From an uncultured bacterium (GTDB taxonomy: Bacteria; Desulfobacterota_D; UBA1144; Nemesobacterales; UBA2774): 64,000 nt of DNA. The DNA lies in assembly GCA_963825135.1 (NCBI GenBank), contig CAWGRW010000009.1, positions 1 to 64,000 of the forward strand. The letters are read 5' to 3'. Made by a program: the position numbers and the translations under genes. Positions 954-55,513 of the stretch are shown here, in pieces. Position 1 is the first letter of the stretch. Each line of letters starts with the position of its first letter. The notes beneath the pieces are model-generated. The model did no database searches and was not told the origin of the DNA. It saw only the letters and a list, made by a program, of their open reading frames with translations.

Positions 954-1045
954 AACAGTTGCAAGCAAGCGCGCAACTGGTCACTCTCTCAGCGAGTTCA
1001 CCCAAGTACATTAACTTCCGGCTTTACGTTGCCTAGGCCAAAACA
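954..1045 (+). mobile_element. ~92-nt AAC-stem-loop insert within a palindromic repeat
   Basis: Interrupts aggagggggga|gccagggtgggggtgtac; empty site at about 10591-10622. Confidence 0.7.
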
Positions 1046-1108
1046 GCCAGGGTGGGGGTGTACCTAGATATGTAAACCCGTTCGCGCTGAGCTAGTCGAA
1101 GCACGTTA

Positions 1109-1231
1109 CCGACATTACAGAATTTGCGTATGGAAAATCGATTGTACGAGCGTTAAGAATCTTACGCGGGGTGGGGTTGAATTGGAAGATTTAGCGAGTA
1201 CATGAGATTTTCAGCACAATTCTGTAGTCGG
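1109..1231 (+). repeat. ~123-nt long-hairpin repeat (LH), copy 1
   Basis: ccgacattacagaatttgc...gcacaattctgtagtcgg. Confidence 0.9.
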
Positions 1232-1473
1232 ATGATTTTCGTCTTTGTATCCAGACAAAGAAGAAAATCTATTGTCTTTGCTTTTTCTGTGTCTTTTCGA
1301 AAGTTCACACTATGTGTGTTCATCAAGGAAAAGAAGGATAAATCAAATAGCCTTTCGCCTTTCCTTTGTCATTGCGAGCCCTCCCGTTCGACCATCGGCA
1401 CACATCCCCCTCTTGCGTCCCCCGCCCTTCCGGCACGATAATATCCGCAACACCCTGAACGGGAGCGGATACC

Positions 1474-2326: not shown

Positions 2327-3974
2327 ATGAAATACCGGAAACCTTTACTCGCGTTCTTATTAGTCCTGACGGCCGTTTTCGGCCTCTACGGGAGGATGCT
2401 CGTCGGGCGGCGGCTCGGGCGTCCCCGCAAACATACGCGCGATATTCGACAAGGCGCTCTACTCGGACGATCCGGGCCTCCGCGTCCTCGACCTCGAAAC
2501 GGGCGAGGTGCTCATCGACTACAAGCCCGATTACGACTTCTATATCGGCTCCGTCAGGAAGATATTCTCCACAGGCGAACTACTGAACGAAATAGGCCCC
2601 GATCACCTGTTCGTAACGCCTGTATATAAGGAAGGCGAGGTCGACGGCTCGGGGGTGCTCAACGGTAGCCTGATTCTCGTCGCGTCGGGCGACATCTCCA
2701 TGGGCGGCAGGACGAAGGCGAACGGGCAGTTCGCGATTACAGACTTCGACCACAACGAGGCAAGCTCGTTCGGCAACGCCGAGCTCACGAAGCCCGACCC
2801 GCTCAAGGGCTATAAGGCCATAGCGGAGCAGATAGCGGCCTCGGGCATCACACAGGTGGACGACGTCGTAATAGACGACAGGCTCTGGAAGCCCTACCCG
2901 TTCAGGGGAGAGTTCGACCTGAGACCGATATTCGTAAACGACGACTGCGTCGATCTGATTATGAACCCGACATCTCCGGGCCTGGACTCATCCGTGGACT
3001 GGCGTCCAAAATCGGCCGCGTTCGGGGTCGTGAACGATCTCGTCACGTCGGGACCGGAGACGGAGTTCATGCTGGAGCTCGACCCCGCAAACCCCGGGTG
3101 CATCGGCGAGCCCGGCTGCACGGCCGCCGTCACCGGACACTCCCGGTGGATTTCTGCCGCCGTTCACGAACGAGTTCCCGCTCGTCCAGACGTTCAGGAT
3201 AACCGAGCCTCAGAACTACGCGCGCACCGTGCTCATCGAGCTTCTCGAGGACGCGGGCGTTACCGTGCTCGCGGACACGGTTGCCCAAAACCCCGTGGCG
3301 AAAATCCCGCCAAGAACTCTTATTCCGGGGACGACCTCGTGACGACGTTCGTCTCTTTCCCGTATAAGGACTACGCGAAGCTGATAAACAAGGTGAGTTA
3401 TAACTTGGGGGCGAACGCGGGCTTCCTCCTCTGGGGCAAAACGCAGGGGGTCGATAACATGGACGCCGCGCTCGCCGCCGAGAGGGAGATGCTGACGAAC
3501 GTATACGGCTTCCCCGGCGACGATTTCCACTTTATCAACGGCGACGGCGGCGGCGAGACCATGGCGAAGAACGAGGTCGTGACGAAATGGCTCGAGATGA
3601 TGACGGAGCAGCCGGCGTTCGAGGCTTTCTTCGACTCTCTCCCGATTCTCGCCGTTGACGGCTCTATGGTGTTCGTTGACGGTTTCCTGTCCGACCCGAC
3701 CCTCGCCGGGGCCAAGGGACAGGTGCACGCGAAGACCGGCACATACGCCGGGGGAGACGAGACGGGCTTCGTCGTAAAGGGCGAGGCGTTCGCGGGTTAC
3801 ATCGACACAAAGAGCGGGAGAGGCCTCGTCTACCAGGTCGTCGTCAATAATGTCAGGTTAAATACGTTGCTCGACATTCTCGAAGTAATCCAGGACGAGG
3901 GCAATAACGGCCATGCTCTGGCGCGACTATCGATTCGCGCGCACGCACAACGGCGTGTGTCTATACGATTCTAG
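2327..3974 (+). CDS. dacB: D-alanyl-D-alanine carboxypeptidase/endopeptidase, peptidase S13 (PBP4-like), copy 1, frameshifted
   Basis: SxxK (GSVRK), SxN (SYN) and KTG (HAKTGT) motifs; signal peptide and GGAGG RBS; several indels, 3' end uncertain (about 3933 by homology). Confidence 0.85.
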
Positions 3975-4373
3975 TGGACTTCCTTATCCCGACCAATAAT
4001 TTCCCTCCCCCCGCAAGGGGGGGGACTAAGGTGGGGGTGTACAATGTGTGCTCATATACGATCCTTCCGAAACTCTTACGCTCAAACCGGCAATCATGAC
4101 GTTTTCGTACGTCAGCGGCGACACGCCGCCCCGTTCACCCTGAGCTTGTCGAAGGGCGGTAATCTTATCTCCCTCCCCCCTTGAGGGGGAGGGTATGGGT
4201 GGGGGGTTTACCTTATCACTACTATCAATCAGGGAGTCTTTTCTTCCCCGACATTACAGAATTTGCGGCGGGTGAGCACCCGCGGGCATATGATCTCAAG
4301 CATCTCCTTTCCCGTTATTGCGAGTGAAGCGAAGCAATCTCGTCTTTTATCTCTATTCCCTCCTTAGAAAAAG

Positions 4374-4465
4374 AACGGATGCGAATAGGTGAGCATTCGG
4401 ACGCCCTACGGTAAAGAGCAAAGAAGGAACTTAACTTCCGGCTCAATGCTTCTGAAGTCCAAGTA
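4374..4465 (+). mobile_element. ~92-nt AAC-stem-loop insert (twin at 7161-7252)
   Basis: Interrupts ccctccttagaaaaag|ggttagggaggattt; empty site at about 17811-17844. Confidence 0.7.
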
Positions 4466-4609
4466 GGTTAGGGAGGATTTAGTTTGTTCTTTCTCTTCCC
4501 GACATTACAGAATTTGCGGCGGGTGAGCACCCGCGGGCATACGATTTCAAGCATCTCCTTTACTGTCATTTCGACCAACGGGAGAAATCTGTCTTTTCTT
4601 TTATCTCCC

Positions 4610-4732
4610 CCGACATTACAGAATTTGCGTTAAGAAAATCGATTGTACGAGCGTTAAGAATCTTACGCGGGGTGGGGTAGAATTGGAAGATTTAGCGAGT
4701 ACATGAGATTTTTAGCACAATTCTGTAGTCGG
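4610..4732 (+). repeat. LH repeat copy 2
   Basis: Same arms and core. Confidence 0.9.
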
Positions 4733-5105
4733 ATGATTTTCTGTTTTTTTTCATCAAGGAAAAGAAGGATAAAAAAAACAGCTTTTCACCTTTTCTAGTC
4801 TTTTCATAATCCACACTATGCGTGTGCTTCTTCTCGTCGAGGAAAAGAAGGATAAAAAAAAACAGCCTATCACCTTTCTTTGTCTTGTCTTTCCGAAAGA
4901 CCACACTGCTTGCGTTAATCAAGGAAAAGAAGAGATAATATATTCGCCTTTTCTTTTTTATTTATCTTCCTCAAAAGAGCAAGCAAGTTCGGCAATCCCG
5001 TATTTTCCTCCCCCCATTTCCCTTTTCCCCCCAACCGAGGCTATAATTGTTTACCGTTATATTTTCTGTTAATCAAAATCACCCTGTCTTGACGGAGGAT
5101 AATGC

Positions 5106-6722
5106 ATGAGATACCGGAAAGCTCTACTCGTGTTTTTACTGGTCCTGATTGCCGTTTTCGTCCTGTACAAGGGCTTCGGCGGCTCGGGCTCGAACATCCC
5201 GGCCGACATACGCGCGACATTCGACAAGGCGCTTTACTCAGGCTCTTCTGGGGCCTCCGCGTGGTGGACCTCGACACGGGCAAGGTGCTCATCAATCTGA
5301 AACCGGACTACAATTTCTTCATCGGCTCCGTCAGGAAGGTATTCTCCGTCGGCGAGCTTCTCAACGAAATAGGCCCCGATCACCTCTTCGTGACCCCGGT
5401 ATATAAGAAAGGCGAAGTGAACGGCTCGGGGGTGCTCAAAGGCAGCCTCATTCTCGTCGCGTCGGGCGACATCTCGATGGGCGGCAGGACGAAGGCGAAC
5501 GGACAGCTCGCGATTACCAACTTCGACCACAACGAGGCCGACTCGCTCGGAAACGCCGTGCTCACGAAGCCAGACCCGCTCAAGGGCTATAAGGCCATCG
5601 CGGAGCAGATAGCGGCCTCGGGCATAACGCAGGTTGACGACGTTGTGATTGACGACAGGTTGTTCCAGCCCTTCCCCTTCAGGAACGAGGGTGCGTTCGC
5701 AATCAGGCCGATATTCGTGAACGACGACTGCGTCGATCTGATTATCAACCCCGCCTCCACCGGCATGGAAGCGTCCGTCGACTGGCGTCCCAAATCGGCC
5801 GCGCTCGGGGTCGTGAACGATCTCGTCACGTCGGGCCCCGGTTCGGAGCTCACCCTCGGGCTCGAGCCCGAATTCCCGGACTGCATAGGCAAGCCCGGCT
5901 GCACTGCGGAGTCAGCGGCCGGCTCCCGGTGGACTTAGTTCCCCCGTTCACGAACGAGTTCCCTCTTATAAGGACATTCAGGATAGTCGAGCCTCAGAAC
6001 TACGCGCGCACGGTGCTCATCGAGCTTCTCGAGGACGCGGGCGTCACGGTGCTCGCGGATCCGTGGCCCAAAACCCCGTGGCGAAGCTCCCGCCCAAGAA
6101 CTCTTATTCGCAGGACGACCTCGTGACGACCTTCGTCTCATTCCCCTACGCCGAATACGCGAAGCTAATATTGAAAGTGAGCTATAACATCGGCGGCGCG
6201 GACACGAGCCTGCTCCTCTGGGGCACCACGCAGGGGGTAGACAACATGGACGCGGCACTCGCGGCCGAGAGGGTTAATCTCACGGAGAATTTCGGCATAC
6301 CGGGCGGCGAGTTCTTCTTCATCGACGGAAGCGGCGGCGGCGGGACCACGGCGACTAACAAAGCAGTCACCGAATGGCTCAGGATAATGACCGGGAAGCC
6401 GGCGTTCGGCGCGTTCTTCGCTGCGCTGCCGATACTCGGAGTGGACGGCTCTCTCGGTTTCGTGACCGATTTCGAGTCGATCGGACGTTAGCCGGGGCGA
6501 AGGGACGGGTGCACGCAAAGACCGGCACGTTCGCGGCCGGTGACGCATCCGGGTCTCGTGATAAAGGGACAGGCGTTCGGCGGTTATATCGACGCGAAGA
6601 GCGGCAGACGCCTCGTCTACCAGACTCGTCGTCAACAATGTCCCGGTTCAGCAGTCAACGACCTTCTCGAAATATTCCAGGACGAGGGCACAATATCCGC
6701 AGTCCTCTGGCGCGACTATTGA
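5106..6722 (+). CDS. dacB: D-alanyl-D-alanine carboxypeptidase/endopeptidase, peptidase S13, copy 2, frameshifted
   Basis: Same GSVRK, SYN, DGSG and HAKTGT motifs spread across ORF pieces 5106-5300, 5102-5938, 5929-6126, 6063-6491, 6374-6889 and 6540-6722. Confidence 0.85.
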
Positions 6723-7590
6723 TTCGCGCGCACGCACACACGGCGTGTGTCTATACGATTCTAGTGGACTTCCTTATCCGACCAATAATTTCCCCTCCCC
6801 CCGCAAGGGGGAGGATTAAGGTGGGGGTGTACAATGTGTGCTCATATACGATCCTGTCGAAACTCCTCAGCTCAAACCGGCAATCGTGACGTTTTCGTAC
6901 GTCAGCGGCGACACGCCGCCCCGTTCACCCTGAGCCTGTCGAAGGACGGTAATCTTATCTCCCTCCCCCCTTGAGGGGGAGGGTATGGGTGGGGGTTTAC
7001 CTTATCACTACTATCAATCAGGGAGTCTTTTCTTCCCGACATTACAGAATTCGCGGCGGGTAGGCACCCGCGGGCTTACGATCTCAAGCATCTCCTTTCC
7101 CGTTATTGCGAGTGAAGCGGAGCAATCTCGTCTTTATCTCTATTCCCTCCTTAAGAAAAGAACGGATGCGAATAGGTGAGCATTCGGACGCCCTACTCTA
7201 AAGAGCAAAGAAGGAACTTAACTTCCGGCTCAATGCTTCTGAAGTCCAAGTAGGTTAGGGAGGATTTAGTTTGTTCTTTCTCTTCCCGACATTACAGAAT
7301 TTGCGGCGGGTGAGCACCCGCGGGCATACGATCTCAAGCATCTCCTTTACTGTCATTTCGACCAACGGGAGAAATCTGTCTTTTCTTTTATCTCCCCCGA
7401 CATTACAGAATTTGCGTATGGAAAATCGATTGTACGAGCGTTAAAAATCTTCCACGGGGTGGGGTTGAATTGGAAGATTTAGCGAGTACATGAGATTTTT
7501 AGCAAATTCTGTAGTCGGATGATTTTTTTGCTTTTTTTCATCAAGGAAAAGAAGGATAAAAAAAACAGCCTATCACCTTTCTTTGTCTTG
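6710..7590 (+). repeat. Second copy of the ~880-bp intergenic mosaic downstream of dacB
   Basis: Near-identical to 3920-4800. Confidence 0.9.
7397..7518 (+). repeat. LH repeat copy 3
   Basis: Same arms and core. Confidence 0.9.
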
Positions 7591-10214: not shown

Positions 10215-10666
10215 ACGGGACCAGACGCACGCGCACACAGTGGGTTTCCACGATTCTACTTGCGCTCCTCCGCCCGACTTACCCGTCATTGCGAGCAACG
10301 CGAAGCAATCTCATCTTTTCTTTCTGTCATTCCCGAAAGCCTTCATCGGGAATCCAGTCTTTGATCTTGTCATTGCGAGCGTAACGAACGAATGCGAGAG
10401 AAGCGCGGCAATCTAGTTTTTTCTTTATCTTCCGACATTACAGAATTCGCGGCGGGCACACACAATGTGTGTCTCTACGATCCTTCCGTAACTCCTCTGC
10501 CATCGCCGGGGAATTTGCCCAATCCTGTTCACCCTGAGCGCACGCGTAGTGTGCTGTCGAAGGGTGCGAATTATTTCCCTCCCCCTCAATAGGAGGGGGG
10601 AGGGTTAGGGTGGGGGTGTACCCAGATATGTAAACCCGTTCGTGCTGAGCTAGTCGAAGCACGTTA

Positions 10667-10788
10667 CCGACATTACAGAATTTGCGTTAAGAAAATCGAT
10701 TGTACGAGCGTTAAAAATCTTACGTGGGATGGGGCGGGATCGGAAGATTTAGCGAGTACATGAGATTTTTAGCAAATTATGTAGTCGG
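10667..10788 (+). repeat. LH repeat copy 4
   Basis: Same arms and core. Confidence 0.9.
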
Positions 10789-10922
10789 ATGATTTTTGCT
10801 TCTTTTCATCAAGGAAAAGAAGGATAAATAAAACAGCCTTTCACCTTTCTAGTCTTTTCATTATCTTTTCATAGACCACTTTAGGTGCACGGTGTTTTCA
10901 TAATCCACACCCGGCAATCCCC

Positions 10923-11375
10923 CTACTTGTCCGGTAGATATATGTCCTTCGCGAGCTCTATGAACCCCCGCCATATCCCGTCGGGCTCCCACACCTCGTC
11001 CATCGGCGCTCTCGCTTCGTCCTCGGTCACCCCGAGGCTCAGGAGCCTGTAGAGGTAAACGAACGCGGACGCCCTCTTGTTGACGACGCAGTGCACCCAG
11101 ACCTTCTTGTTTCGGAGGTCGTCCATGACCGAGAAGAAACGGTCGAGGTCGGACAGCCCGGGCGCTGTCCACACGACGGGTATGTGGTAATAGGTCATGC
11201 CCGAGGCAGACGCGACGTCCCCCTCGTCCGGTATCGCGTCGGGGGACGTGCCCGTCGCGAGGTTCACGACGGCCGCGTAACCCTCTTTCGCGATTTGTGC
11301 GAACTCCTCCCGCCCCGGCTGCCCGGACGTCGCGATGTCGTCGCTCACAATGACGCAGTTTTTGATATTGTTCAT
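10923..11375 (-). CDS. Protein-tyrosine-phosphatase-like (DUF442-like) protein
   Basis: ATSGQP, YYHIPV and HCVVNKRAS (CX5R) motifs. Confidence 0.85.
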   Translation of the reverse strand: MNNIKNCVIVSDDIATSGQPGREEFAQIAKEGYAAVVNLATGTSPDAIPDEGDVASASGMTYYHIPVVWTAPGLSDLDRFFSVMDDLRNKKVWVHCVVNKRASAFVYLYRLLSLGVTEDEARAPMDEVWEPDGIWRGFIELAKDIYLPDK

Positions 11376-11532
11376 ACGGGGAAAATATAGTCGCGATCAT
11401 CCCCCATTCCACAATAAATTCCTTCCCCCTAAAAAGGGGGAAGGTACGGATGGGGGTGTCACATTTCATTTATAAAATCAATCATGCTGAATTAATTTCA
11501 GCATCTCGCTTTTAATATCTTACATATCCCTT

Positions 11533-12279
11533 CTATACTACCTGCGCTCTCTTGCGTTTCACAGCGAAGAACACGCCGACCATCAAGAGCCCCGCAGCGG
11601 CAGCGATCATCCCCCATTCGGAGAGCGTGGGAACGTTCTCGTCGTTACCGCCGAACCACACGTTGAGCACGCCGTTCCCGTGCTCCTGATTCTCCCCGTC
11701 CTGGTGATCGAGCAGGACGCAGCAGATGGGGACGTCGGACGTTATGCCCAGGAAATTATTGAACTTTTCGTTCAAACTTACTGTAGTCTGCCCGATCAGA
11801 TTTTCGTGGGTATCGAGCACAGTGACGTCGGCGCTGCCATTGCAATCCCCCTGTGTATAGCACCCGACCGTCAGACCTATCCGTGTCGCGCCGGGATTCA
11901 CAGTGACGTCGAATGAGTCCTCGCCTGAACTCTCGATTAGTATAGGACCGGGCGGAGCGCCGGGGCCCGCGGCGGCCGTACCCAAAACACGCAGCCCTCC
12001 GACCGGGTTCACCGGCAGGTTATAGAACGCGAGCTCCGGAAGTATGTCGCCGGGAGAAAAACAGTCGTCGTCGCTCTCGGAATTGACCGGCACGTTGCAC
12101 TGCTCCCCGCCTGCGGGCTGCACTTTGGTAGCGGAGAAGTCCTGGAATCGTAAATTCGGATTCTGCGCCAGGAACTGCGCCTGGTCGTTAGTGAACTCCA
12201 CCTGCGCGAGCGCGGGCGAAAGGGAAATCAGAAGCGTTATTATAAATACGAAACCCGCAAGCTTGTGATGATTCTTCAT
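11533..12279 (-). CDS. IPTL-CTERM sorted surface protein
   Basis: Signal peptide; C-terminal VPTLSEWGMIAAAAGLLMVGVFFAVKRKR. Confidence 0.9.
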   Translation of the reverse strand: MKNHHKLAGFVFIITLLISLSPALAQVEFTNDQAQFLAQNPNLRFQDFSATKVQPAGGEQCNVPVNSESDDDCFSPGDILPELAFYNLPVNPVGGLRVLGTAAAGPGAPPGPILIESSGEDSFDVTVNPGATRIGLTVGCYTQGDCNGSADVTVLDTHENLIGQTTVSLNEKFNNFLGITSDVPICCVLLDHQDGENQEHGNGVLNVWFGGNDENVPTLSEWGMIAAAAGLLMVGVFFAVKRKRAQVV

Positions 12280-12365
12280 ATGCGTTCCTCCATGTTCCCC
12301 CGCTCTTTTTTAATTCCCTCCTTTCGTAAAGGAGGGTTAGGGAGGATTTATGTTTTTCTTTCTTT

Positions 12366-12738
12366 TCAGGAATTAAGCGCCCTTCTCTCTCTCTTGACCG
12401 CGAAGAACACTCCGGCGAGCATCAGCCCCGCCGCCGCAGCGATCATCCCCCATTCGGAGAGGGTGGGGATAGGCTGCGTAGAACCTGATATAAAGCCCGT
12501 GCCCCTGAACTGTGTTACGAGCCCGAGGTCGTCAGCATCGCCCGTCGGACTATTTACATCCGGACCGCTCGCCCGTGATGTTATGTCCGGGAACAATTCG
12601 GTGGCATCGAACACCACCGAATTGCCGATCCACGCAATCGTTGATCCTGAAATCCACCAGCAGATTTCCGTTCGCGGGATCGAACTCCAGAAGCGTGATT
12701 ATAAATACGAAACCCGCAAGCTTGTGATGATTCTTCAT
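12366..12738 (-). pseudogene. Internally deleted or chimeric IPTL-CTERM gene
   Basis: Truncated shared signal peptide MKNHHKLAGFVFIITLL fused directly to EFDPANGNLLVD..., then a frameshift into ...QPIPTLSEWG. Confidence 0.7.
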
Positions 12739-12824
12739 ATGCGTTCCTCCATGTTCCCCCGCTCTTTTTTAATTCCCTCCTTTCGTAAAGGAGGGTTAGG
12801 GAGGATTTATGTTTTTCTTTCTTT

Positions 12825-13581
12825 TCAGGAATTAAGCGCCCTTCTCTTTCTCTTGACCGCGAAGAACACGCCGACCATCAAGAGCCCCGCAGCCGCAGCG
12901 ATCATCCCCCATTCGGAGAGGGTCGGAATTTGAGGAGCCGCTCGTGTCCCGAACCATACGTTCAACACGCCCTGAATCACATCGACGTTTTCATCAAGGA
13001 TCCTTATTTCCGTAATCGGCTCCGCAGTATTGATGCCGAGGAACGAATTGAACGCGCTGGTCACCGGTATCACGATAGTCCCAAGCAGCCCGCTCCCGCC
13101 GAAGACAGACACGCGAACGGTCTTTCCGATGATGCACGTGTCGCTCTCTGAAAGGCATCCCGCATTAATCCCCACTGCGTTAATATTCGGCTCGGTAAAA
13201 ATTATATCGAAATCGTCGCCGACACCTCCGACGTTGGACGCCAATACGTTAGGCGGGTTATCGTTCCCAAAAAAATTGCCGTTAAAAAGAACCAGCGCAT
13301 TGGAGGATAGTCCCGGGTCCACCACGAACTCTATATCCGGGAGTATCTGGCCGGGCGAGAAGCAATCGTCGTTAGAGCTCGAGTTCGCGGGATTTGCGCA
13401 TACTTCAGGCATGGCGAGAACTTTACCGAGGAAGTCCTGAAAGCTGGAGATTCGGAATCGCCGAGCCAGGAACTGTACGCCTGGTCGTTAGTGAACGTGC
13501 ACCTGCGCAAACGCGGGCGAAAGGGGAATCAGAAGCGTTATTATAAATACGAAACCCGCAAGCTTGTCGATGATTCTTCAT
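12825..13581 (-). CDS. IPTL-CTERM sorted surface protein, frameshifts in the 5' part
   Basis: IPTLSEWG tail; shared DDCFSPG.ILP and GVLNVWFG motifs; leader copy at 13529-13581. Confidence 0.85.
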
Positions 13582-13749
13582 ATGCGTTTCTCCGTGTTCC
13601 CCCCGCTCTACAATAAATTCCCTCCCACTTGAGGGGGGAGGGATAGGACGGGGGTGAAACTTTCCGTTTTCAATCAGCATATTAAACCGCAGCCCTTCTC
13701 GTTTTGACTTCTATCACTTCGATGCGGCGAGCAGCCAGCTCGCCCGCAA

Positions 13750-14511
13750 TTAGCCAACTGCATCCGACTGCTTGCTTGCTCGCAGTCGCCTCACCGCGAA
13801 GAACACGCCGGCGAGCATCAGCCCCGCCGCGGCCGCGATCATCCCCCACTCCGAGAGCGTGGGGATACTCCGGGTCGCGAGATCGAACCATACCTGCGTT
13901 ACGCCAGGCACGTTCTCCGACGGGGCGGGCACAATAATGCTGACCCTGGCGATAGGCGCAGAGGACTCGATGCCCAGGAACGAGTTGAACAGGCTTCTGC
14001 CCTGTACGACGGTCTGGCCGAGAAACTCGCCGTCCAGCCCGAAGACCTCGACTGTCATAGCCGTATCGCAGCTCCCATTTTCCGACTGCAGACACCCGAG
14101 CAGCACCCCGACGGCGTCTGCGCCCAAGACGGGGAATTTAACGTCCAGGGTCGTGTTGACAATACTCGCCGCGAGCACGTTGGGGGGGCTGCCGCTGCCG
14201 CGGTAATCGGGACCGAACAGCACGAATAAGTCGATCCCATCCTGCAGATTTATTGTGAGGTCAAGTCCCGGGAGTATGAATCCGGGAGTAAAGCACTCGT
14301 CGTTGCTTCTGGAATTGACAGGCGAGTTGCAGTTAGTGAACTCGTCCGCGGGTATTGCGTGACTCCGGAAACCCTGGGAAGCCGCCCCGGGGTTATCCGC
14401 CAGGAACTGCGCCTGGTCGCTGGTGAACGTCACCTGCGCGAGCGCGGGCGAAAGAGAAATCAGAAGCGTTATTATAAATACGAAACCCGCAAGCTTGTGA
14501 TGATTCTTCAT
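13750..14511 (-). CDS. IPTL-CTERM sorted surface protein
   Basis: Same signal peptide as 11533-12279; IPTLSEWG tail. Confidence 0.9.
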   Translation of the reverse strand: MKNHHKLAGFVFIITLLISLSPALAQVTFTSDQAQFLADNPGAASQGFRSHAIPADEFTNCNSPVNSRSNDECFTPGFILPGLDLTINLQDGIDLFVLFGPDYRGSGSPPNVLAASIVNTTLDVKFPVLGADAVGVLLGCLQSENGSCDTAMTVEVFGLDGEFLGQTVVQGRSLFNSFLGIESSAPIARVSIIVPAPSENVPGVTQVWFDLATRSIPTLSEWGMIAAAAGLMLAGVFFAVRRLRASKQSDAVG

Positions 14512-14598
14512 ATGCGTTTCTCCGTGTTCCCCCCGCTCTTTTTTGATTCCCTCCTTTCGTAAAGGAGGGTTAGGGAGGATTTATGTTTTTCTTTCTTT

Positions 14599-15366
14599 TC
14601 AGGAATTAAGCGCCCTTCTCTTTCTTTTGACCGCGAAGAACACACCGACCAATCCTAATCCCGCCGCCGCAGCGATCATCCCCCATTCCGAGAGCGTGGG
14701 GATCTGATTCGGGACCCGCGTCCCGAACCAAACGTTCAGCACTCCTTTCTCCGAGAAGTCGCCGTTGGCGTTCCTGATGCTTATATTGCCTATCTGCGCC
14801 TGGGTCGATATCCCGAGGAATGTGTTGAACCCGCTCGTAACGTGGACAGTGGTCTCCGCAAGGAACTGTGGGGTAGTATCGAATACCACGACCTGCACAT
14901 CCGCATCGCACGACCCCTTGGAAATACAGCCCAGCGTCAGGCCCGCCCTGTTCACCCCCGGGTCGAATACGATTTCGAAATCATTATCAGTAAAGGTGGC
15001 CGTGAGTACCGGCCCCGGCGGCTCGCCAGCGCTGGTAGAACCCTCCCCCACCAAAAACAGTCCCGTGACCGGATCAAGTATAGGGCCGTTCAGGAACTCT
15101 ATCCCCGGCAGTATGGTCCCGGGCGAAAAGCAATCGTTATCACTCGCCGAATCTGCCGGCGCCGGGCAGACAATAGAGCTGACGGGGACGACCTTCGAGC
15201 CCACAAAATCCTGAAAAGCCAGGTCCGGATTCTGCGCCAGGAACTGCGCTTCGTCCGTCGTAAAATTCACCTGCGCGAGCGCGGGTAACGCTGGAAATAA
15301 AATCACTGTGAGAGCAATAAGATACAAGCCTCCCCTTAAAGCTCGCCGAATGGTTTTGGAATCCAT
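14599..15366 (-). CDS. IPTL-CTERM sorted surface protein, first of the array
   Basis: Distinct signal peptide, same AQFLAQNP and GVLNVWFG motifs, IPTLSEWG tail. Confidence 0.9.
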   Translation of the reverse strand: MDSKTIRRALRGGLYLIALTVILFPALPALAQVNFTTDEAQFLAQNPDLAFQDFVGSKVVPVSSIVCPAPADSASDNDCFSPGTILPGIEFLNGPILDPVTGLFLVGEGSTSAGEPPGPVLTATFTDNDFEIVFDPGVNRAGLTLGCISKGSCDADVQVVVFDTTPQFLAETTVHVTSGFNTFLGISTQAQIGNISIRNANGDFSEKGVLNVWFGTRVPNQIPTLSEWGMIAAAAGLGLVGVFFAVKRKRRALNS

Positions 15367-15529: not shown

Positions 15530-16234
15530 ATGAGTGGAGATATATTCGAAGAGACGGAATCAGGAAGGAGAAGAATCGCGGTCGTATTCGCCGCCGGCGT
15601 CGCAGCGGGAATAGTAATCACGCTGATAATACTATCGCTCTCGGGCTCCCCCGACCGGTACGAGCTCGTGTCCTCGCAGGACGGCGCGGTCGTACACAAG
15701 ATAGACAGGGAGACCGGCAGGGTGTGGTGGAAGAATTCCTACGTCCAGATGGACCCGCAGGGACAGCCGGTGACCATATGGTACTGGGAGGAGCTAACCC
15801 TCGACAGGCCCGGCGCAACGAAGCTCGCGAAGGAAGTTAAGACGAGCACCGACGACGCGATGAAAGCCGAGGAGGAGGCCAGGCTCTCTGAAGAGAAGGA
15901 GAAGGACTCGATCAGGCAGAAGAGGCTCGACGAGATATACAGCATCTGCGGCGACGACGTCGATTGCGTAAAGAAGAAATGCTCGGTCGGGTACAAGGGT
16001 TCGAAAGACCCGGACTGGACGTCTTTCTGCACGGACAGTCTCAAGGCCCACATATCGGACGTGATAATAGGGCAGTGCGGAGGGGACGCGGGGTGCATCA
16101 AGAGCTACTGCGTGAATAAATACAACAATACGTACCCGGCCGTGAGCGACTGCGTGAGCGCCATCAATCTCCGGAAGGTCACGAACGAAAACCTGAAGTC
16201 CCCCGAAGGAGCGGAGGATAAGGAAGAGCAGTAG
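15530..16234 (+). CDS. Membrane-anchored hypothetical protein with Cys-rich C-terminus
   Basis: One N-terminal TM helix, charged linker, 8 Cys in CGDDVDCVKKKC and CGGDAGCIKSYC repeats. Confidence 0.75.
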   Translation: MSGDIFEETESGRRRIAVVFAAGVAAGIVITLIILSLSGSPDRYELVSSQDGAVVHKIDRETGRVWWKNSYVQMDPQGQPVTIWYWEELTLDRPGATKLAKEVKTSTDDAMKAEEEARLSEEKEKDSIRQKRLDEIYSICGDDVDCVKKKCSVGYKGSKDPDWTSFCTDSLKAHISDVIIGQCGGDAGCIKSYCVNKYNNTYPAVSDCVSAINLRKVTNENLKSPEGAEDKEEQ

Positions 16235-17688: not shown

Positions 17689-17777
17689 AACAGTTGCAAG
17701 CGTGCGCGCAACTGGTCGCCGTTGGTTGATTGCAAGTAACTCAAATTGACACCGTACACGATCTGCACAATCCAAAA
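17689..17777 (+). mobile_element. ~89-nt AAC-stem-loop insert
   Basis: Interrupts gtcatttcgagc|gagaaatct. Confidence 0.7.
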
Positions 17778-18270: not shown

Positions 18271-18363
18271 TTATTTTGTATTAACCAGCATCGAGCCGGA
18301 AGTTAAGGTGCTTCAGTGAATTTGTCGGGAGCGCGACCAGTTGCGCGCTCGCTTGCAACTGTT
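18271..18363 (-). mobile_element. ~93-nt AAC-stem-loop insert
   Basis: Interrupts cccccttgaggggg|tatgggtgggggt on the - strand. Confidence 0.7.
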
Positions 18364-19623: not shown

Positions 19624-19783
19624 ATTATTTTCTCCAATCACTTAATCCCCTCCCCTTTCCGGGGGGAGGGTTAAGGGTGGGGGTGCACACAATGTGTGCT
19701 CATATACGATTCTCCCGTAACTCCTCCGCTATCGCCTGGGAATTAGCCAAACCCGTTCGTGCTGAGCTAGTCGAAGCACGTTA

Positions 19784-22518: not shown

Positions 22519-22689
22519 ACCGCTTCGAGCAAGCAACGGTTTCGAGCGTGCGAGGAACCGGTCGCCCCAGGCTAATTCCTGTAAGTTGCCATCTACCGCG
22601 ATATGTACAGAAAACAAAATAAGTAGGACGCCCCGGGCTAATTCAAAGTTCACTACCTGCTCACCGAATATCAGCATATGAAAACTAAA
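22519..22689 (+). mobile_element. Two nested AAC-stem-loop inserts (inner 22535-22619)
   Basis: Within gtcatttcgacc|gggagaaatct; inner element sits in the loop of the outer one. Confidence 0.6.
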
Positions 22690-26670: not shown

Positions 26671-26762
26671 AACGGTTCTGAGCAAGCGTAAGAACCGGAC
26701 GCCCTGCACCAAGAGCACCGAAGGATATTAACTTTCGGCTGAATGTTGCTGAAGTCCAAATC
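26671..26762 (+). mobile_element. ~92-nt AAC-stem-loop insert
   Basis: Follows ccctcctttagcaaag; head aacggttctgagcaagcgtaagaaccggacg. Confidence 0.65.
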
Positions 26763-31249: not shown

Positions 31250-31335
31250 TGGTTTAACAAAAGTGTCACTTCAATTAAGAAAGTCCCTTTGCATTTAATC
31301 ATCTCCGACCAATTCCTCACTTGTTCGAAATTGTT
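31250..31335 (-). mobile_element. ~86-nt AAC-stem-loop insert (relative at 51893-51979)
   Basis: Interrupts ccccctgaatc|cccctttttctaagggggaa; empty site at about 22801-22835. Confidence 0.7.
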
Positions 31336-32669: not shown

Positions 32670-32761
32670 AACAGTTGCAAGCAAGCGCGCAACCGGTCAC
32701 TCTCTCGGCGAAGTCACCGAAGTACATTAACTTCCGGCTTTACGTTGCCTAAGCCAAAACA
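32670..32761 (+). mobile_element. ~92-nt AAC-stem-loop insert, close to the 954-1045 copy
   Basis: Same target and very similar sequence. Confidence 0.7.
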
Positions 32762-39116: not shown

Positions 39117-39162
39117 CCACATAAGGAGGTTTGAAGATATGAGATTGTATTCGTGTTTGACA

Positions 39163-39555: not shown

Positions 39556-39682
39556 CGTCCTTCCTCCTTTAAAGAGTATTTTCAGATGCTCCGACCCGTT
39601 TCCCCCTTAAACCCGCTGCTGCTTCTCTTAACTGTACGCACTTGCGTATGTTTCAACCCGAATGCATACGAGGATATATATG

Positions 39683-39697
39683 GCAAAATTCGTGCCA
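39683..39697 (-). promoter_or_regulatory. sigma54 -24/-12 promoter
   Basis: TGGCACGAATTTTGC on the - strand, a consensus match with GG-N10-GC spacing. Confidence 0.7.
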
Positions 39698-40146
39698 ATC
39701 CCGTAAATAAAGGGGAATTGATGGATTTTAATTGGATTTCAAGCCTTTAGAACTATTAGCAGTTGCAAAAGAATTGTGAAGAAACCGTAATTTTGCCTAT
39801 ATTCTGTACATAGCGGGCTATTTTATAGGCAATCCGGCCGGAATTTAAGCCGCGGACTTGAGAAATTACTTTACCTGCGCTGATTAATTTCCCCTCCCCC
39901 TTCACAGGAGGGGGGAGGGCCGGGGTGGGGGTGTACCTTTCATCAATCAAATCAGTCATCCTGAATTTATTTCAGGATCTCATCTTTTATCTTTTTCGTC
40001 ATTTCAATGAACTCGATATTATCTCACTAAAAACACGTTCGGGAGCGCAGCAGGGTGGGAGGATGTACCGAATTGAATATTGTCCATCACCCCCATCCTA
40101 ACCTTCCCCCCTCAAGGGGGAAGGAAGTAATGCCGCCCCTCCCTTA

Positions 40147-41336: not shown

Positions 41337-41990
41337 ATGAAGACACTCAGGTTCGGCATATACGCGGGGATAATATGGGCGCTCGTCTCGCTCATACTCA
41401 TCGCGGCGTCGGTATTAGCGGGTCTCAGGCTCGCGTGGGTGGAGCTCGACTTCAGAATCCTCTCGGGCTCGTTCCTCCTCGCGGCCAAGGCGCTCGGCTT
41501 CGGGGACGCCGTGAGCGGCCTCGCGTCCTACGCAGACACCGGGCTGCCCATGACGACTCTCCGCGTAACGGCGTGCGCGGCGCTCACGTTCGCGGACGGA
41601 TTCACGAGCGGCGTGATCATCGCGCTCATATATAACCTCCTCGCCGGGGGCAAGGGAGGGAGCACCCTCGGGAAGACGCTTTCGTTCGGCATAGCGTCGG
41701 GGATAACTCTTGGAATAGCGTCGGGTCTTCTCGCGCTCGCGAGCATGGCGTACGGCCTCAATATCGTGTCGTTCGATTTCACCGTGAGGCCCGTGTGGGT
41801 GACTTTCTATCTGCTGTCCAAAACCGGAATGCCCGGGTTTCTCTTTCCGCTCATGAATTCATACATGTACTTCCCGAACGGCCCCGCGGGGGCGCTCGCG
41901 TGGGCGGCGTGGGGCTTTATCGACGGGCTCGTCGAAGGCGCGGTGCTCGCTTACCTGTTTTTAACGTTTCGCGGAGTTGTTAAAACCTGA
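41337..41990 (+). CDS. Integral membrane hypothetical protein with two internal repeats
   Basis: KTL.FGI..GI...L and F.DG...G duplicated motifs. Confidence 0.75.
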   Translation: MKTLRFGIYAGIIWALVSLILIAASVLAGLRLAWVELDFRILSGSFLLAAKALGFGDAVSGLASYADTGLPMTTLRVTACAALTFADGFTSGVIIALIYNLLAGGKGGSTLGKTLSFGIASGITLGIASGLLALASMAYGLNIVSFDFTVRPVWVTFYLLSKTGMPGFLFPLMNSYMYFPNGPAGALAWAAWGFIDGLVEGAVLAYLFLTFRGVVKT

Positions 41991-42080: not shown

Positions 42081-42291
42081 CCGACTACATAATTTGCTAA
42101 AAATCTCATGTACTCGCTAAATCTTCCGATTCTACCCCATCGGAGCAATAGTTTAGCGATGTCCGTGGCTAACTAACGTCGTGCGGATAGGAGAGGGCGT
42201 CCGAATGCGCGCTCGCTTGCATTCGTTCCACGTAAGATTCTTAACGCTCGTACAATCGATTTTCTTAACGCAAATTCTGTAGAGTTGTCGG
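42081..42291 (-). repeat. LH repeat copy 10, inverted, with an 86-nt insertion in the loop
   Basis: Reverse complement of the consensus interrupted at 42142-42227. Confidence 0.85.
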
Positions 42292-45580: not shown

Positions 45581-45593
45581 ATTAAATTTATAG

Positions 45594-48883: not shown

Positions 48884-48969
48884 AATGGTTCTGAGCAAGC
48901 GTAAGAACCGGTCGCTAATGGCTGATTGCATATGAGGATGTTATCTCTGCGCCACACCGTACTAAACCG
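48884..48969 (+). mobile_element. ~86-nt stem-loop insert (AAT head variant)
   Basis: Interrupts gtcattgcgagg|cgac.gcggcaatct; empty site at about 24326-24358. Confidence 0.65.
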
Positions 48970-51610: not shown

Positions 51611-52196
51611 ACGTGAGAGTATAGCCGACGCCTGTTAAGAAAATATTAAGACGGGGTGAGTTTTTGGTCATACCCGTTGCATGCGGATACATCCCTCCCA
51701 GCGGAACATTCATTTCAATTTACTACGCCTTTGAAGGGGAACGAATGTGAGGAATTGGTCGCCCCCTGGTTGATTACAAATTAAGTCACTGTATCGTTGC
51801 GCTTCCGCAACACAAGTCAAAATGAATCGGGAACCCATTTCTCTGTCCCTCTTGCTCTCCTTATCAAAGACAAAGACTAAATCCCCCTGAATTTGGTTTT
51901 AATAACTTTGCCGCTTCAATTAAGCGACTTCTTTGCTATCACCCAACTCCAACCAATTCCTCACACGTTCGGATTTGTTCCCCTTTTTCTAAGGGGGAAA
52001 TTGTAATCTACGCTTTCTCCTTTAATTCCCTCCTTAGGAAAAGGAGGGTTAGGGAGGATTTTATTGATTGTCCTTCTTCGACGCCTTGTCTTTCCCGGCC
52101 TTCCCGGCCCGAACCAGCCTCAGGATGGTTATTTGCGTAAATTCCTGTAAAATATCTGTCTGAAATTCCTGACTAGCGGGTGGCGTAAGACCGGAT

Positions 52197-55100
52197 ATGG
52201 AAGTTAAATCAGCTCAATACGGCCTCTTCAGCTTTTTAAGCCGCAAGGGTAAGGCTGCCCCCACGGCCGAGGACTGGCACATAAAGGGGAACGAGCTCAC
52301 GGTGCACCGTGATTTCCCGGGGGCCCTCGCCGCGTACGAGAAAGCCATAGGGCAGAGGCCCGATTACTTCTCGGCGTGGATCGGGAAAGGGAACGTGCTC
52401 GCGTCGCTCGACAGGCACAACGAGGCGCTCGCCGCATACGACAAGGCTGGGAAGCTCAAGCCCGAGCACCTGAAGGCCGTCGAGGGCAACGGATTCGTCC
52501 CCTATTACATGCGCAAGCGCGCGGAGTACGTCGAAACGTCGGCGAAGTCCCGTATGTTCGAGTTCGATTTCCACATGGCGTGGGTCGGCAGGGGCGTCGT
52601 GCTTACCGCGCTCGGCAGGCACGGGGACGCGGCCCTGGCTTATGAAGAGGCGGTGAAAGTCGATCCCGGATCCCACGCGGCCCGGATAGGCAGGGCGGAC
52701 GCTCTCTACGCCGTGGGCGCGCACGGCGAGGCGGCGGACGCTTACGACCGCGCTAACGCGCTCGTCCCCGACTTCCACCATTCGTGGAGGAGGAAAGGGA
52801 AATCCCTCTCAGAGCTCGGCAACTATTACGCCGCCATAGAGGCCTTCGACCGCGCCATCGGCATTAAACCCGACTACGAAAACGACTGGTACAGCAGGGG
52901 GTGCGCCCTCGCCGGTCTCGGCAAATACGCGGACGCCATAGAGGACTTCGACAGGGCGCTCGGTCTCAACCCCGGTTACGCGGACGCTATGTTCCGGAAA
53001 GCCCTCGCCCTCGCCGCCCTCGGCAGAAACGAGGACGCGCTAAAAGCGTTCGACGAGACCGTAAGATCAAAACCCGGACGCACGAACGCCTACATAGAAA
53101 AGGGCAGGACGCTCGCCCGCCTCTCGAGATTCGACGAGGCATTCGACGCATACGACAAGGCTATAAAGAGCAACCCGTACTCGCACCTCGCGTGGATAGG
53201 CAAGGGGGACGCGCTCGCCGGGGTCGGGAAATTCGAAGACGCCGCGAACGCCTTCGAGCTGGCACTGAAATTAAATCCGGACGATCCCGTCCCGTACGCG
53301 AGGAAAGGGGACGCGCTCTCCGGCATGAGAGAATATGAAGAAGCGGTCAAATCATACGACCGGGCGGAGGCGCTCGCGCCCGACGATGCGGACATACTCA
53401 CGCGGAAGGGAGACGCACTCACGGGTCTCGGAAACCTCGCCGGGGCTCTGACGATATTCGAGAGGGCCATCGCCGTCAGGCCCGGACACCCGGGCGCGTG
53501 GAGGGGCGAAGGGGACGCGCTCGCAAGGCAGGGGAAACACGGGGACGCGCTCGTGTCGTACCGCAGGGCAATCGAGCTCGACCGCGCCGAATACCGCGCG
53601 TGGACCGGCACGGGAGACGCGCTTCGGGCGATGGGGAATTATAGGGACGCCGTAACGGCCTACGACCGCGCGATCGAGGCCAACCCCGGATACGAGCCCG
53701 CCAGGCGCGGGAGAGGGGACGCATTACTAAAATCGGGACACTTCACCGAGGCGCTCGGTTCACTCGACGACGCGGTCGGGCTCGATCCCGCGTCCGAAGG
53801 GGCGTGGCGGGGCAGAGCCGAAGCGCTCGCGGAGCTCGGCGAACACGGCGCGGCCGCCGAGGCATACTCCCGCGCTTCGGGGATAAACCCCGGAAACTCG
53901 GATCATCTCCTCGGCATGGGCGGAGCGCTCAGCTCGGCCGGGAGGTACGGCGAGGCGGCGGGGGCCTTCGACAGGGCGCTCGCCATAGACCCCGCTAACG
54001 CCGCGGCGTGGAGCGGCAGGGGGATCGCGCTCGCATATTCCGGTAAATACGCAGAGGCTTCCGAATCGTTCGACAGGTCGCTCGCGCTCGATCCCGGAGA
54101 CGCCGCCTCCTGGAACGGAAAGGGCGGTGCGCTATTCGGCATGAACAAATACGGGGAGTCGCTCGCGGCGTACGATAAAGCCATAGAGCTCAGTCCCGCG
54201 AACGCGGCCGCCTGGAACAACAAGGCGCACGCGCTGTTCGGGCTCGGGGATTACAGGGCGGCCGAGGCGGCCTTCGTAAGGGCTTCTCACATCGAGGGAT
54301 GGTGGAGCGAGCCGCGCATTGGGAAGGCGAGCATGTACCTCGCTCTCGGCAATACGGCGAACGCATACGGGGCCGCCGAAGAGGCGCTTTCAGAGCTCGG
54401 CAGAAACGCGGAGCTCCTAGCGGCGAGAGGCTTCTCGGAGCTTTCCATGCGGGAGTACGGGAGCGCGGTCGAGTCCTTCCGCGGGGCGTCCGAATCGGAC
54501 CCCGGCAACCCCGCGCTTCTCCTGTGGCGGGCATACGCCTCGTACCTCTCTGCCGAAAAGAATTCCGGCTCCGGCGCGAGCATATACAGGGACAATATAG
54601 CGTCCGTGCTCGAAACGCTCGACAAGGCGCACCGGATGATCGCGCCCGAAGAGAAAGACGGGACGCTTCCTCCCTGGATCCCTCAGGAAAAGAAGAAGCC
54701 CGACGAAAAGGAGCTCGGCATAATGTCGGACATCCTGTATTTCAAAGCGCGCTGCTATTTCAAGCTCGGGGATTACGACAAAACCGTCAAAGCGCTTAAC
54801 GAATGCGCGCGCCTCGGCGCCGGGGACGAGAGAGACGTAAAGCGCGTCCTTAAAATCATATGGAAGAATTATTCGGCGCCTTCTCTCTGGAGGTGGTGGC
54901 TCGCCTCGCCGGTGAACCCATGGCCGAAGAGGATTTTATTCTTCTCCGTATCCCTCCTCGCCTCAGGCCTCCTGCTGGCCCATCCGCTCCTGGTCGAGCT
55001 GATCAAGCCTTACGCCTTAAACACGGCCGTATATATCTCCCTCGTCGCCGTCCTCATAGGGATACTCTTCATGCCGCTCACGGAGAGGACCAGGGAGACG

Positions 55101-55205
55101 GAGTACGAATTCAGCCTCGCGCCCGATCTGAGGAGAGACCCCGTACTCACTCCCGTCACCCTCGACGGCCACATCAAACGGATACGCCGAAAACTCCCGG
55201 CTTAA
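52197..55205 (+). CDS. Large TPR-repeat protein with two C-terminal TM helices
   Basis: About 20 W..KG.AL..LG...A..AY..A...P repeats. Confidence 0.95.
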   Translation: MEVKSAQYGLFSFLSRKGKAAPTAEDWHIKGNELTVHRDFPGALAAYEKAIGQRPDYFSAWIGKGNVLASLDRHNEALAAYDKAGKLKPEHLKAVEGNGFVPYYMRKRAEYVETSAKSRMFEFDFHMAWVGRGVVLTALGRHGDAALAYEEAVKVDPGSHAARIGRADALYAVGAHGEAADAYDRANALVPDFHHSWRRKGKSLSELGNYYAAIEAFDRAIGIKPDYENDWYSRGCALAGLGKYADAIEDFDRALGLNPGYADAMFRKALALAALGRNEDALKAFDETVRSKPGRTNAYIEKGRTLARLSRFDEAFDAYDKAIKSNPYSHLAWIGKGDALAGVGKFEDAANAFELALKLNPDDPVPYARKGDALSGMREYEEAVKSYDRAEALAPDDADILTRKGDALTGLGNLAGALTIFERAIAVRPGHPGAWRGEGDALARQGKHGDALVSYRRAIELDRAEYRAWTGTGDALRAMGNYRDAVTAYDRAIEANPGYEPARRGRGDALLKSGHFTEALGSLDDAVGLDPASEGAWRGRAEALAELGEHGAAAEAYSRASGINPGNSDHLLGMGGALSSAGRYGEAAGAFDRALAIDPANAAAWSGRGIALAYSGKYAEASESFDRSLALDPGDAASWNGKGGALFGMNKYGESLAAYDKAIELSPANAAAWNNKAHALFGLGDYRAAEAAFVRASHIEGWWSEPRIGKASMYLALGNTANAYGAAEEALSELGRNAELLAARGFSELSMREYGSAVESFRGASESDPGNPALLLWRAYASYLSAEKNSGSGASIYRDNIASVLETLDKAHRMIAPEEKDGTLPPWIPQEKKKPDEKELGIMSDILYFKARCYFKLGDYDKTVKALNECARLGAGDERDVKRVLKIIWKNYSAPSLWRWWLASPVNPWPKRILFFSVSLLASGLLLAHPLLVELIKPYALNTAVYISLVAVLIGILFMPLTERTRETEYEFSLAPDLRRDPVLTPVTLDGHIKRIRRKLPA

Positions 55206-55513
55206 ATTCCTTATATTATTTCTCTTTAATCCGTCATCCTGAACTACGTTTCCGAGCGTGCGCAAGAACCGGTCGCCATTGCCAATATAGCACTTCCTCG
55301 ATTAACCCCGGCTACATACTTATTAAAATTCCAGTTGTGAGAAATCTATCTTTACCCGTTCTTCCCGGGCTCGCCCGTCCCGAGCCCGTCGAAGGGTCTG
55401 CATTATTCTTCCCCTCACTGCGAGTGCAGCTAACGAAGTTAGCGGGACGCGGCAATCCCCTTCCCTCTTCTTTCCCTAATATTGCGAGCCGCGCAAGAGG
55501 CGAAGCAATAGTG

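Follow-up and report, generated by a model that had tools for sequence, protein, structure and literature searches.

A family of short non-coding inserts with a covarying head hairpin inside the palindromic repeats of Candidatus Dadabacteria and relatives

Introduction

The first 64,000 nucleotides of contig CAWGRW010000009.1 (assembly GCA_963825135.1, from an uncultured bacterium), which we call the window, are a chromosomal segment crowded with repeats, the genes of which are ordinary ones as judged by Pfam on 31 open reading frames (ORFs), and several of its palindromic repeats are interrupted by a short insert of about 90 nt, here named the mini-element. What are these inserts, and how did they come to lie inside other repeats? 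An earlier reading of the window made from its letters alone, the sequence-only reading, had listed about 15 of them and proposed either a non-autonomous mobile element that targets structures or a small RNA family that it did not recognise. We find that the inserts form a genuine, non-coding family of modules of 86–92 nt with a strongly constrained hairpin at the 5' end, which is absent from the libraries searched and apparently, from the assemblies that carry it, specific to the lineage of Candidatus Dadabacteria and close relatives. To the second question our answer is tentative: a module that an enzyme acting in trans may insert as a single strand, and that probably spread further together with the repeats that it had entered.

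The inserts and their head hairpin

A covariance model of the 5' part of the mini-element, its head, was built from 11 heads and applied to the window without filtering. It recovers 15 copies (Table 1), 12 of them strong (45.6–56.5 bits, E 7e-17 to 4e-13), two degenerate and one extra, on the minus strand at 13699–13790; the best score remaining after these copies is 12.2 bits (E 0.18), and a degenerate head pattern has six matches in the window as against none in 100 shuffles. All the inserts listed by the sequence-only reading are real and lie where it had placed them, the model scoring 12 as strong and two as degenerate, and its list needs amendment in detail only: the extra copy had been overlooked, the copies at 4374 and 7161 belong to one segmental duplication and are not independent events, and the pair at 22519–22689 does consist of two copies, one of which sits nested in the head loop of the other. 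The segmental duplication itself is about 700 nt of mosaic repeats at 3960–4700 and 6750–7490 (family D19, 300 nt at 97% identity), which follows the ORFs 2508–3974 and 5102–5938; these two ORFs match separate parts of the Peptidase_S13 profile (261–425 and 10–126).

Scanning public genome contigs with the degenerate head pattern gave at least 121 stretches (loci, given L-numbers), which exclude the window's own genome and are the basis of all counts across assemblies; the DNA examined in total comes to about 0.56 Mb, mostly short contigs of metagenome-assembled genomes (MAGs). At E values up to 1e-3 the head model matches 169 times, in 72 loci that add up to 428,517 bases, and an nhmmer profile run on all loci and the window finds at least 224 distinct full-context copies, spread over the window and at least 16 assemblies. 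Almost all the public assemblies that bear copies are labelled Candidatus Dadabacteria or are related to them. The labels of the locus assemblies comprise Candidatus Dadabacteria, Thermodesulfobacteriota and 'delta proteobacterium', and some are evidently mislabelled or mis-binned: in 'Spirochaetia' assemblies the syntenic genes are 82–90% identical to Dadabacteria assemblies, and a 'Thermoanaerobaculia' contig is about 99% identical to one of the latter. Between the window and the loci, repeats reach about 95% identity and genes 71–78%, which suggests that the window belongs to a relative. A Kaiserbacteria locus (L048) fits the pattern and fails the model; it was treated as a chance match, of which about two are expected by a rough estimate from information content.

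The head begins with a tetranucleotide of the form NAAC before the stem (CAAC in 103 of 224 copies, GAAC in 61, CTAC in 16). That the stem covaries, as the sequence-only reading had noticed, is strongly borne out by 143 distinct heads, with the correction that the helix has 7 bp (the C plus six bases) and not 6; its 5' arm occurs in 32 distinct forms among the 224 copies. Over the 143 heads the stem cells pair in 98.3% of cases, against 84.2% in shuffles, and 124 cells are changed on both sides where 28.6 are expected; the alignment behind these figures was fitted to the covariance model, which favours structure, and both the controls in which the partner was slid by one to three columns (pairing then falls to 11–49%) and independent RNAalifold runs agree with them. 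One more covarying pair is held by the loop, GA-G-CRWG-C-GA (GC 65, AU 10 and GU 8 in 85 sequences). G:U pairs are frequent, U:G being the commonest state at one pair (58 of 143), and non-pairs are rare, and hence only one strand is constrained, either as RNA or as single-stranded DNA. The head also resembles the repetitive extragenic palindromic (REP) hairpins of GTCAT type found in the same window (GTCATTGCGAG-TGAAGCGAA-GCAATC compared with AACGATTGC-GAGCAAGCGA-GCAATC).

The hairpin is directly followed by GGWCGCC (GGACGCC in 95 of 224 copies, GGTCGCC in 28), then, at 45–46 nt from the module start, by a central box, ATCCAGTAC.GCTC, which keeps its fixed distance in 86 copies, and finally by an A-rich 3' end with the fixed motif CAAAAYA, some copies ending in ...CTCC. 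The near-constant length reported earlier holds, being 86–92 nt, exactly 86 at the two fully readable junctions and about 91 between host hairpin arms. A head lies 44–48 nt upstream of 110 of the 111 tails (45 nt in 25, 46 nt in 79), and the longer copies with an ORF between the same ends, for which the sequence-only reading had suggested a search, were not encountered among them; head-only forms account for 20 of 224 copies. Past the head, RNAalifold finds no conserved fold in the body, either in 14 window copies or in 85 locus copies, the consensus structure lying in the head alone, and eight single-sequence DNA folds of whole elements are no more stable than their shuffles (z from −1.42 to +1.19).

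The family was no better recognised by the libraries than by the sequence-only reading. Rfam at gathering threshold gives no match in the window, and a permissive Rfam search of L077, L044, L062 and L065 gives four sub-threshold matches to the unrelated families FtrB, CRISPR-DR9 and whalefall-1. The plasmid and phage collections contain no match to the mini-element, and no description of it was found in the literature, where the coverage of subscription journals was poor.

Table 1. Copies of the mini-element in the window, with their host repeats and the empty versions of these hosts; carets mark junctions
Feature	Position	Strand	Description	Head score (bits)	Empty host sites	Target nt lost
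Copy	954..1045	+	92 nt; CCCTCCCCC-type G/C hairpin repeat; stem AGTTGC/GCAACT	53.1		
Copy	4374..4465	+	92 nt; host CCCTCC-TTAGAAAAAG^GAGG^GYTAGGGAGG; segmental duplication with 7161	47.9	at least 6	GAG(G)
Copy	7161..7252	+	Duplicate of 4374 copy, inside duplicated block 6750–7490; CCCTCC-TTAGAAAAAG type	45.6	at least 6 (as for 4374)	GAG(G)
Copy	13699..13790	-	Stem GACTGC/GCAGTC; head match 13749–13792	34.3		
Copy	17689..17777	+	Loop of REP-like hairpin GTCATTTCGAGC...CGAGAAATC; GTCATTTCGACC hairpin type	56.5	4565, 7352	0–2
Copy	18271..18363	-	CCCTCCCCC-TTGA-GGGGG^ repeat; CCCTCCCCC type	56.5	51122 (minus; one, exact)	GAGG
Nested pair	22519..22689	+	Outer copy 22519–22534 plus 22623–22689; inner copy 22535–22622 in outer's head loop; host REP GTCATTTCGACC...CGGGAGAAATC	54.7 (inner)	4565, 7352	0–2
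Copy	26671..26762	+	11-nt loop; stem GGTTCT/AGAACC; CCCTCC-type host on left flank, right host arm absent	49.2		
Copy	31250..31335	-	Exactly 86 nt, clean, in CCCCCTTAGAAAAAGGGG^GATTCAGGGGG; CCCCC type	51.3	22830 (minus)	0
Copy	32670..32761	+	Near-match of 954 copy, same host type	51.4		
Copy	42142..42227	-	Exactly 86 nt, clean, in long D2 repeat at AATCTTACGYGG^GRTGGGG	52.5	1154, 4655, 10712, 17933, 19829, 29469, 63521	0
Copy	48884..48969	+	AAT head, 11-nt loop; REP GTCATTGCGAGG...GCGACCGCGGCAATC	51.8	24322	about 6
Copy	51893..51979	-	CCCCC-type host	47.0	22830 (minus)	0–1
Degenerate copy	51736..51826	+	Head loop partly deleted; head match 51736–51773, E 7e-4	19.2		
Degenerate copy	55241..55330	+	REP GTCATCCTGAAC^; head begins TAC; head match 55241–55287, E 3e-6	25.8		

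Host repeats and junctions

Junctions were defined by comparing paralogous filled and empty sites within the window. The sequence-only reading had counted at least six interrupted repeat types with empty versions present, and empties were indeed located for six host types. Neither inverted repeats nor a fixed duplication is found at these six types, again in keeping with that reading; the sole inverted repeats that flank inserts are the arms of the host hairpins, which also occur empty. Its estimate of 0–3 lost target bases was too narrow, the actual losses being 0–6 nt (none at two types, GAG(G) at two and about six at one). The insertion inside hairpin repeats that it described holds in so far as the hosts are hairpin-forming and are found empty; the D2 repeat departs from this, its site being no obvious hairpin.

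The loci show the same arrangement, with inserts placed exactly between the 8-bp arms of REP-like hairpins, for example between ATTCCTGC and GCAGGAAT or between ATCCTGAA(C) and TTCAGGAT, and in 15 copies the 3' host arm starts at +91. Altogether, the insert is found with sharp junctions in at least ten sequence contexts that are unrelated to one another.

Among the repeats of the window are long composite intergenic ones (D1–D9, D13, D15, D16 and D20) at 1074–1274, 4575–4775, 7362–7562, 10632–10832, 19749–19949, 63441–63641 and related stretches. They are built of recurring modules, for example CCGACATTACAGAATTTGCG in 19 copies and CCCGTTCACCCTGAGC..GTCGAAGGG in 12 copies.

Nesting, tRNA genes and gene ends

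Mini-elements are also found inside one another. This self-nesting occurs in head loops, usually after loop base 8, at 22535 of the window and in L001, L015, L117, L033 and L064. A different kind of target is seen at 4064–4580 (minus) of L033, where a tRNA-Arg(acg) gene is tandemly duplicated together with its upstream region. The upstream gene copy is broken by two inserts, of which one replaces the D-loop and the other follows the 5' T-stem, in the T-loop. The second gene copy, downstream, is undamaged, and after it comes a mini-element in inverted orientation that has a 12-nt repeat of the tRNA 3' end on its flanks. A 12-nt repeat of this kind separates tandem units in both L001 and L033: at 3860–4230 (minus) of L001, three to four mini-elements form a tandem array in which each follows the 12-mer GCGCGCCCGGAG, which in reverse complement matches a tRNA-like 3' end, and one of the units carries an extra copy nested in its head loop. 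Finally, a truncated copy (the head plus about 30 nt) at 3975–4085 of L074 lies in otherwise non-repeat DNA and is flanked by the 24-nt direct repeat GGAAACTGATGGGACGGATAGAGC.

Gene ends are affected as well. The copy at 13699–13790 (minus) provides both the final codons and the stop codon of the IPTL-CTERM ORF at 13750–14511, and copies take the same place at a gene end in L034, L049, L084 and L086. The stretch around it, 10861–14703, is a cluster of paralogous small ORFs with C-termini of IPTL-CTERM type, the 3' ends of which are near-identical DNA repeats (D10 and D18).

A second small module (..TGCCGCGGCG.AGCC....GAAGCCGG..) was noticed in the 3' part of mini-elements or in REP arms, among other places at 301–430 of L107, at 255 (minus) of L041 and at 2718–2834 of L028. 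Because it lies inside these other elements, at least two insert families are nested in one another.

Probable spread with the host repeats, and strand polarity

The mini-element and its hosts are closely associated. The body subfamily tracks the host type, and a GTCAT-type REP arm lies upstream on the same strand in 142 of the 224 copies and is reversed in none. In L020 and L016, chimeras unite a left host and head from one composite with a body and right host from a different one. An orthologous site carries the insert in three species, whose flanks are 91–96% identical; here the bodies have diverged more quickly than the flanks, and two of the three have a decayed stem. Near-identical assemblies are filled at both sites compared, and where the flanks are about 80% identical, the two sites share the head while other repeat modules have taken the place of the remainder. 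Because the subfamily follows the host type and the site is filled in all three species, much of the spread was probably co-amplification of the insert plus its host and not fresh insertion.

The copies are also oriented alike over long distances. For copies outside the window that are separated by 1 kb or more, 96 pairs lie on the same strand and 11 on opposite strands; from 2 kb upwards the figures are 51 and 6, the pairs not being independent in either count. In 44 of 57 loci of at least 4 kb, the copies lie on the C-rich strand. Within the window the bias is weaker (9 to 5 among 14 nhmmer copies); by our own reading, 17 of the 18 clear GTCAT-type REP hairpins at 4314–48872 (with arms ATTCCCGA, ATTGCGAG, ATTTCGA and others) are on the plus strand, a strong polarity that does not depend on gene direction. 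Relative to neighbouring genes, 32 copies are sense and 25 antisense in co-directional intergenic regions, 60 copies near locus edges being unscored. The regional co-orientation suggests a link to the direction of replication.

Comparison with known systems

Several families of small bacterial repeats share features with the mini-element. REPs resemble the end hairpins of IS200/IS605 insertion sequences (ISs), and a Y1 enzyme cleaves and rejoins bacterial interspersed mosaic elements (BIMEs) (PMC3333891). With REP/BIME systems and their REP-associated tyrosine transposases (RAYT, TnpA-REP) the mini-element has in common, as regards its head, a short intergenic hairpin whose 5' foot bears a conserved tetranucleotide, and further a very high copy number, mosaic clustering with other motifs and hairpins like IS200/IS605 ends (PMC3333891), and its head has the architecture of the window's GTCAT-type REPs. 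It differs from them by a 55–60-nt non-palindromic tail with conserved boxes, by its fixed total length and by sitting inside other REPs, and no RAYT gene, flanked by repeats or otherwise, was found among the ORFs scanned in the 0.56 Mb. Unlike REP doublets forming hairpins (REPINs), it has one head hairpin and no two inverted REPs, and its consensus does not pair elsewhere.

Palindrome-associated transposable elements (PATEs) are ends-only derivatives of IS200/IS605 that are moved in trans, short, non-coding and hairpin-bearing, and have no inverted repeats (PMC7290912). The mini-element is likewise short, non-coding and hairpin-bearing, lacks inverted repeats and has a strand-polarised distribution. 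PATEs are not known to duplicate their target on insertion. Unlike them, the mini-element has a single terminal hairpin, 2–3 nt from its end, with none at the 3' side, it shows no conserved target tetra- or pentanucleotide, and no parent IS with the same ends was seen (110 of 111 tails have their head close by). Classical miniature inverted-repeat transposable elements differ too, as the mini-element has the ends AAC... and ...CAAAAYA or ...CTCC and neither terminal inverted repeats nor a duplication of fixed length. Small dispersed repeats of 21–27 nt, without obvious transposon ends, were reportedly described inside other repeats of heterocyst-forming cyanobacteria by Elhai et al. in 2008, and enterobacterial repetitive intergenic consensus (ERIC) elements with internal inserts, also without obvious transposon ends, are said to have been reported by Sharp in 1997. 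By these descriptions the mini-element differs in its length of about 90 nt, in sequence, in host phylum and in its covarying head.

To call the family an undescribed system, for which the sequence-only reading held it to be the best candidate, is right as regards the absence of library matches and too strong otherwise, since the REP-like head and the behaviour resemble known REPs, BIMEs and PATEs.

Possible mechanisms

We tentatively favour, at somewhat less than an even chance, a non-autonomous single-strand insertion module that a putative enzyme acting in trans would handle through the REP-like head, and that was later co-amplified with its hosts. The module would comprise the REP-like head ((G/C)AAC, the 7-bp covarying stem and the loop), GGWCGCC, the central box and the A-rich 3' end. 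The enzyme, most likely a Y1 HUH transposase akin to RAYT or to those of IS200/IS605, would recognise it as a single strand by the head hairpin and place it, without terminal inverted repeats or fixed duplication, into hairpin-prone DNA, for instance REP-like and G/C-rich repeats (in a loop or an arm), the loop of its own head and the loops of tRNA genes. Afterwards, insert and host repeat would multiply as one composite unit and swap parts by recombination. Support for such a module comes from the family's hairpin with its constraint on one strand, the clean 86-nt insertions, the seven empty sites against one filled in D2, the exact fit between 8-bp host arms, the nesting and the inserts in tRNA loops, and also from the 142 to 0 orientation of the REP arms, the regional polarity, the REP-like head with its head-only forms and the likeness of REPs to IS200/IS605 ends. 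The later spread as composites is supported by the match of body subfamily to host type, the chimeras and the site filled in three species. The family, its strand-specific hairpin, the junctions, the nesting, the constant orientation and the regional polarity are established by the data; the single-stranded DNA intermediate and the class of the enzyme are what we infer from them.

A number of findings weigh against this insertion module. Its junctions are variable, with 0–6 nt lost or, in isolated cases, direct repeats of 12 or 24 nt, and the left junction has no conserved tetra- or pentanucleotide, the left flanks being as varied as ACGTGG, AAGGGG, AAAAAG, GCGAGG, CTGAAC, CCTGC and CCGGAG. 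The D2 site is not an obvious hairpin, and no second hairpin is present at the 3' end in the RNAalifold consensus or the DNA folds. Guide-like complementarity between flank and body is absent as well; a signal of complementarity between flank and interior, seen in 46 of 220 copies where permutations reached at most 26–31, proved to be only the pairing of REP arms with the 3' arm of the head. The filled/empty polymorphism at orthologous sites that the sequence-only reading led one to look for was not found among loci of different assemblies, the comparisons yielding no clean pair and only filled-filled or rearranged sites. If GC skew marks the leading strand, the position of the constrained strand on the C-rich strand is presumably the reverse of that of IS608. 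As for the mover, Pfam identifies no transposase among the 31 window ORFs; no transposase, recombinase or reverse transcriptase was found among 23 ORFs bordered by REPs or heads (Pfam) or 15 unassigned ORFs (NCBIfam), and all-against-all blastp reveals no multicopy gene family among 368 locus ORFs. This failure to find a mover is weak evidence, as it concerns just about 0.56 Mb of mostly short MAG contigs. The lack of a 3' hairpin and of a target tetranucleotide, the variable junctions and the C-rich strand argue against simple membership of the PATEs or REPs.

Unlikely, and yet the alternative that we take most seriously, is that the module is now essentially immobile, either a small number of ancient insertions or a single ancestral composite having been carried along by multiplying hosts and made mosaic by recombination or gene conversion. 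The agreement of body subfamily with host type, the invariant orientation to the host (142 to 0), the site filled in three species and the filled-filled state of near-identical assemblies, the origin of the 4374 and 7161 copies in a segmental duplication and the chimeras that pair a left host of one type with a right host of another would all follow from it. It accounts poorly for at least ten unrelated contexts with sharp junctions, for self-nesting that recurs at the same loop position, for two inserts in the loops of a single tRNA pseudogene and for structural selection on the head over 32 stem variants, which is not expected of passive DNA. An improbable explanation is a functional small RNA or a cis-acting RNA or DNA site, for protein binding or processing, which the host would keep and which would not be selfish. 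The fixed spacing of the conserved head hairpin, GGWCGCC and central box, the strand-specific structure and the persistence of copies at orthologous sites fit such a role; they are opposed by the absence of an Rfam match, by the lack of a conserved fold past the head or of excess stability in whole units, by the unbiased orientation to genes (32 to 25), by copies that disrupt gene ends and a tRNA copy and by bodies that diverge quickly. The small RNA proposed as an alternative by the sequence-only reading thus finds little support, since gene orientation is neutral, whole elements fold like their shuffles and structure is confined to the head.

The two remaining explanations involve other kinds of enzyme. 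REPs are known insertion targets of IS110-family elements (PMC1525189), and in Pseudomonas putida the small non-autonomous ssr9 module circularises and spreads independently into REPs with the trans-acting transposase of ISPpu9, an IS110 element (PMC12288879). By analogy, the mini-element, which likewise lacks duplications and inverted repeats, might be a passenger of a REP-targeting DEDD transposase of IS110/IS1111 type. We hold this to be very improbable: ssr9 needs an IS of the same genome and uses one REP type, whereas the mini-elements have many unrelated targets and no IS110/IS1111-type ORF was seen in the 0.56 Mb examined, and the strand-specific covariation of the hairpin together with the regional polarity points to single-strand recognition. 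Least probable of all is an RNA-mediated element resembling a short interspersed nuclear element (SINE), in which a short transcript, with a hairpin at the 5' end and rich in A at the 3' end, would be reverse-transcribed into nicked or single-stranded targets by a putative reverse transcriptase. CAAAAYA ends, strand-specific pairing that tolerates G:U and junctions ranging from small deletions to direct repeats of 12 or 24 nt would be compatible with it. Unlike a SINE, however, the mini-element has a fixed 3' motif and no variable-length tail, it has no 5'-truncated copies (a head belongs to 110 of 111 tails), reverse transcriptase is missing from the scanned ORFs, there is no promoter evidence and the orientation to genes is neutral; no such element is known in bacteria.

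A further reading, rather unlikely and a little more doubtful than the immobile composite, is a way of moving DNA that was not known before, with the REP-like hairpin as the sole handle: a single-strand enzyme, belonging to the host or selfish, would put a cargo of fixed length into hairpin loops, including those of tRNA genes and of its own head. Neither inverted repeats nor a second hairpin at the other end would be involved, and the target sequence would not be fixed. If this were true, the copies would be footprints of a loop-targeting transposition or template-switch system of which no autonomous member has been described. The spread of most small bacterial repeat families is unexplained, though such repeats shape genomes; here, the sharp junctions, the constrained single-strand handle, the range of targets and the polarity make the mechanism directly testable, and the family could lead to a new partner enzyme, or to a new RAYT-like activity, in an uncultivated phylum. 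Nested repeats of this kind also explain why such genomes assemble poorly, and they give rise to spurious small ORFs and change the ends of genes, the copy at 13699–13790 being an example.

Other features of the window

A suspected synteny of the ORF 2508–3974 with L047 was checked and rejected. The 882-aa ORF at 56386–59034 (minus) has no Pfam or NCBIfam match, and the ORFs 32928–33914, 39139–39750 and 15530–16234 are likewise without family assignment. The stretch 41337–41990 has a weak NCBIfam match to a phage holin family, below the cut-off (35.2 bits for a cut-off of 70). Finally, 52197–55205 encodes a TPR protein of 1002 aa, the DNA of which still repeats with a period of 102 nt (family D8, in 13 copies).

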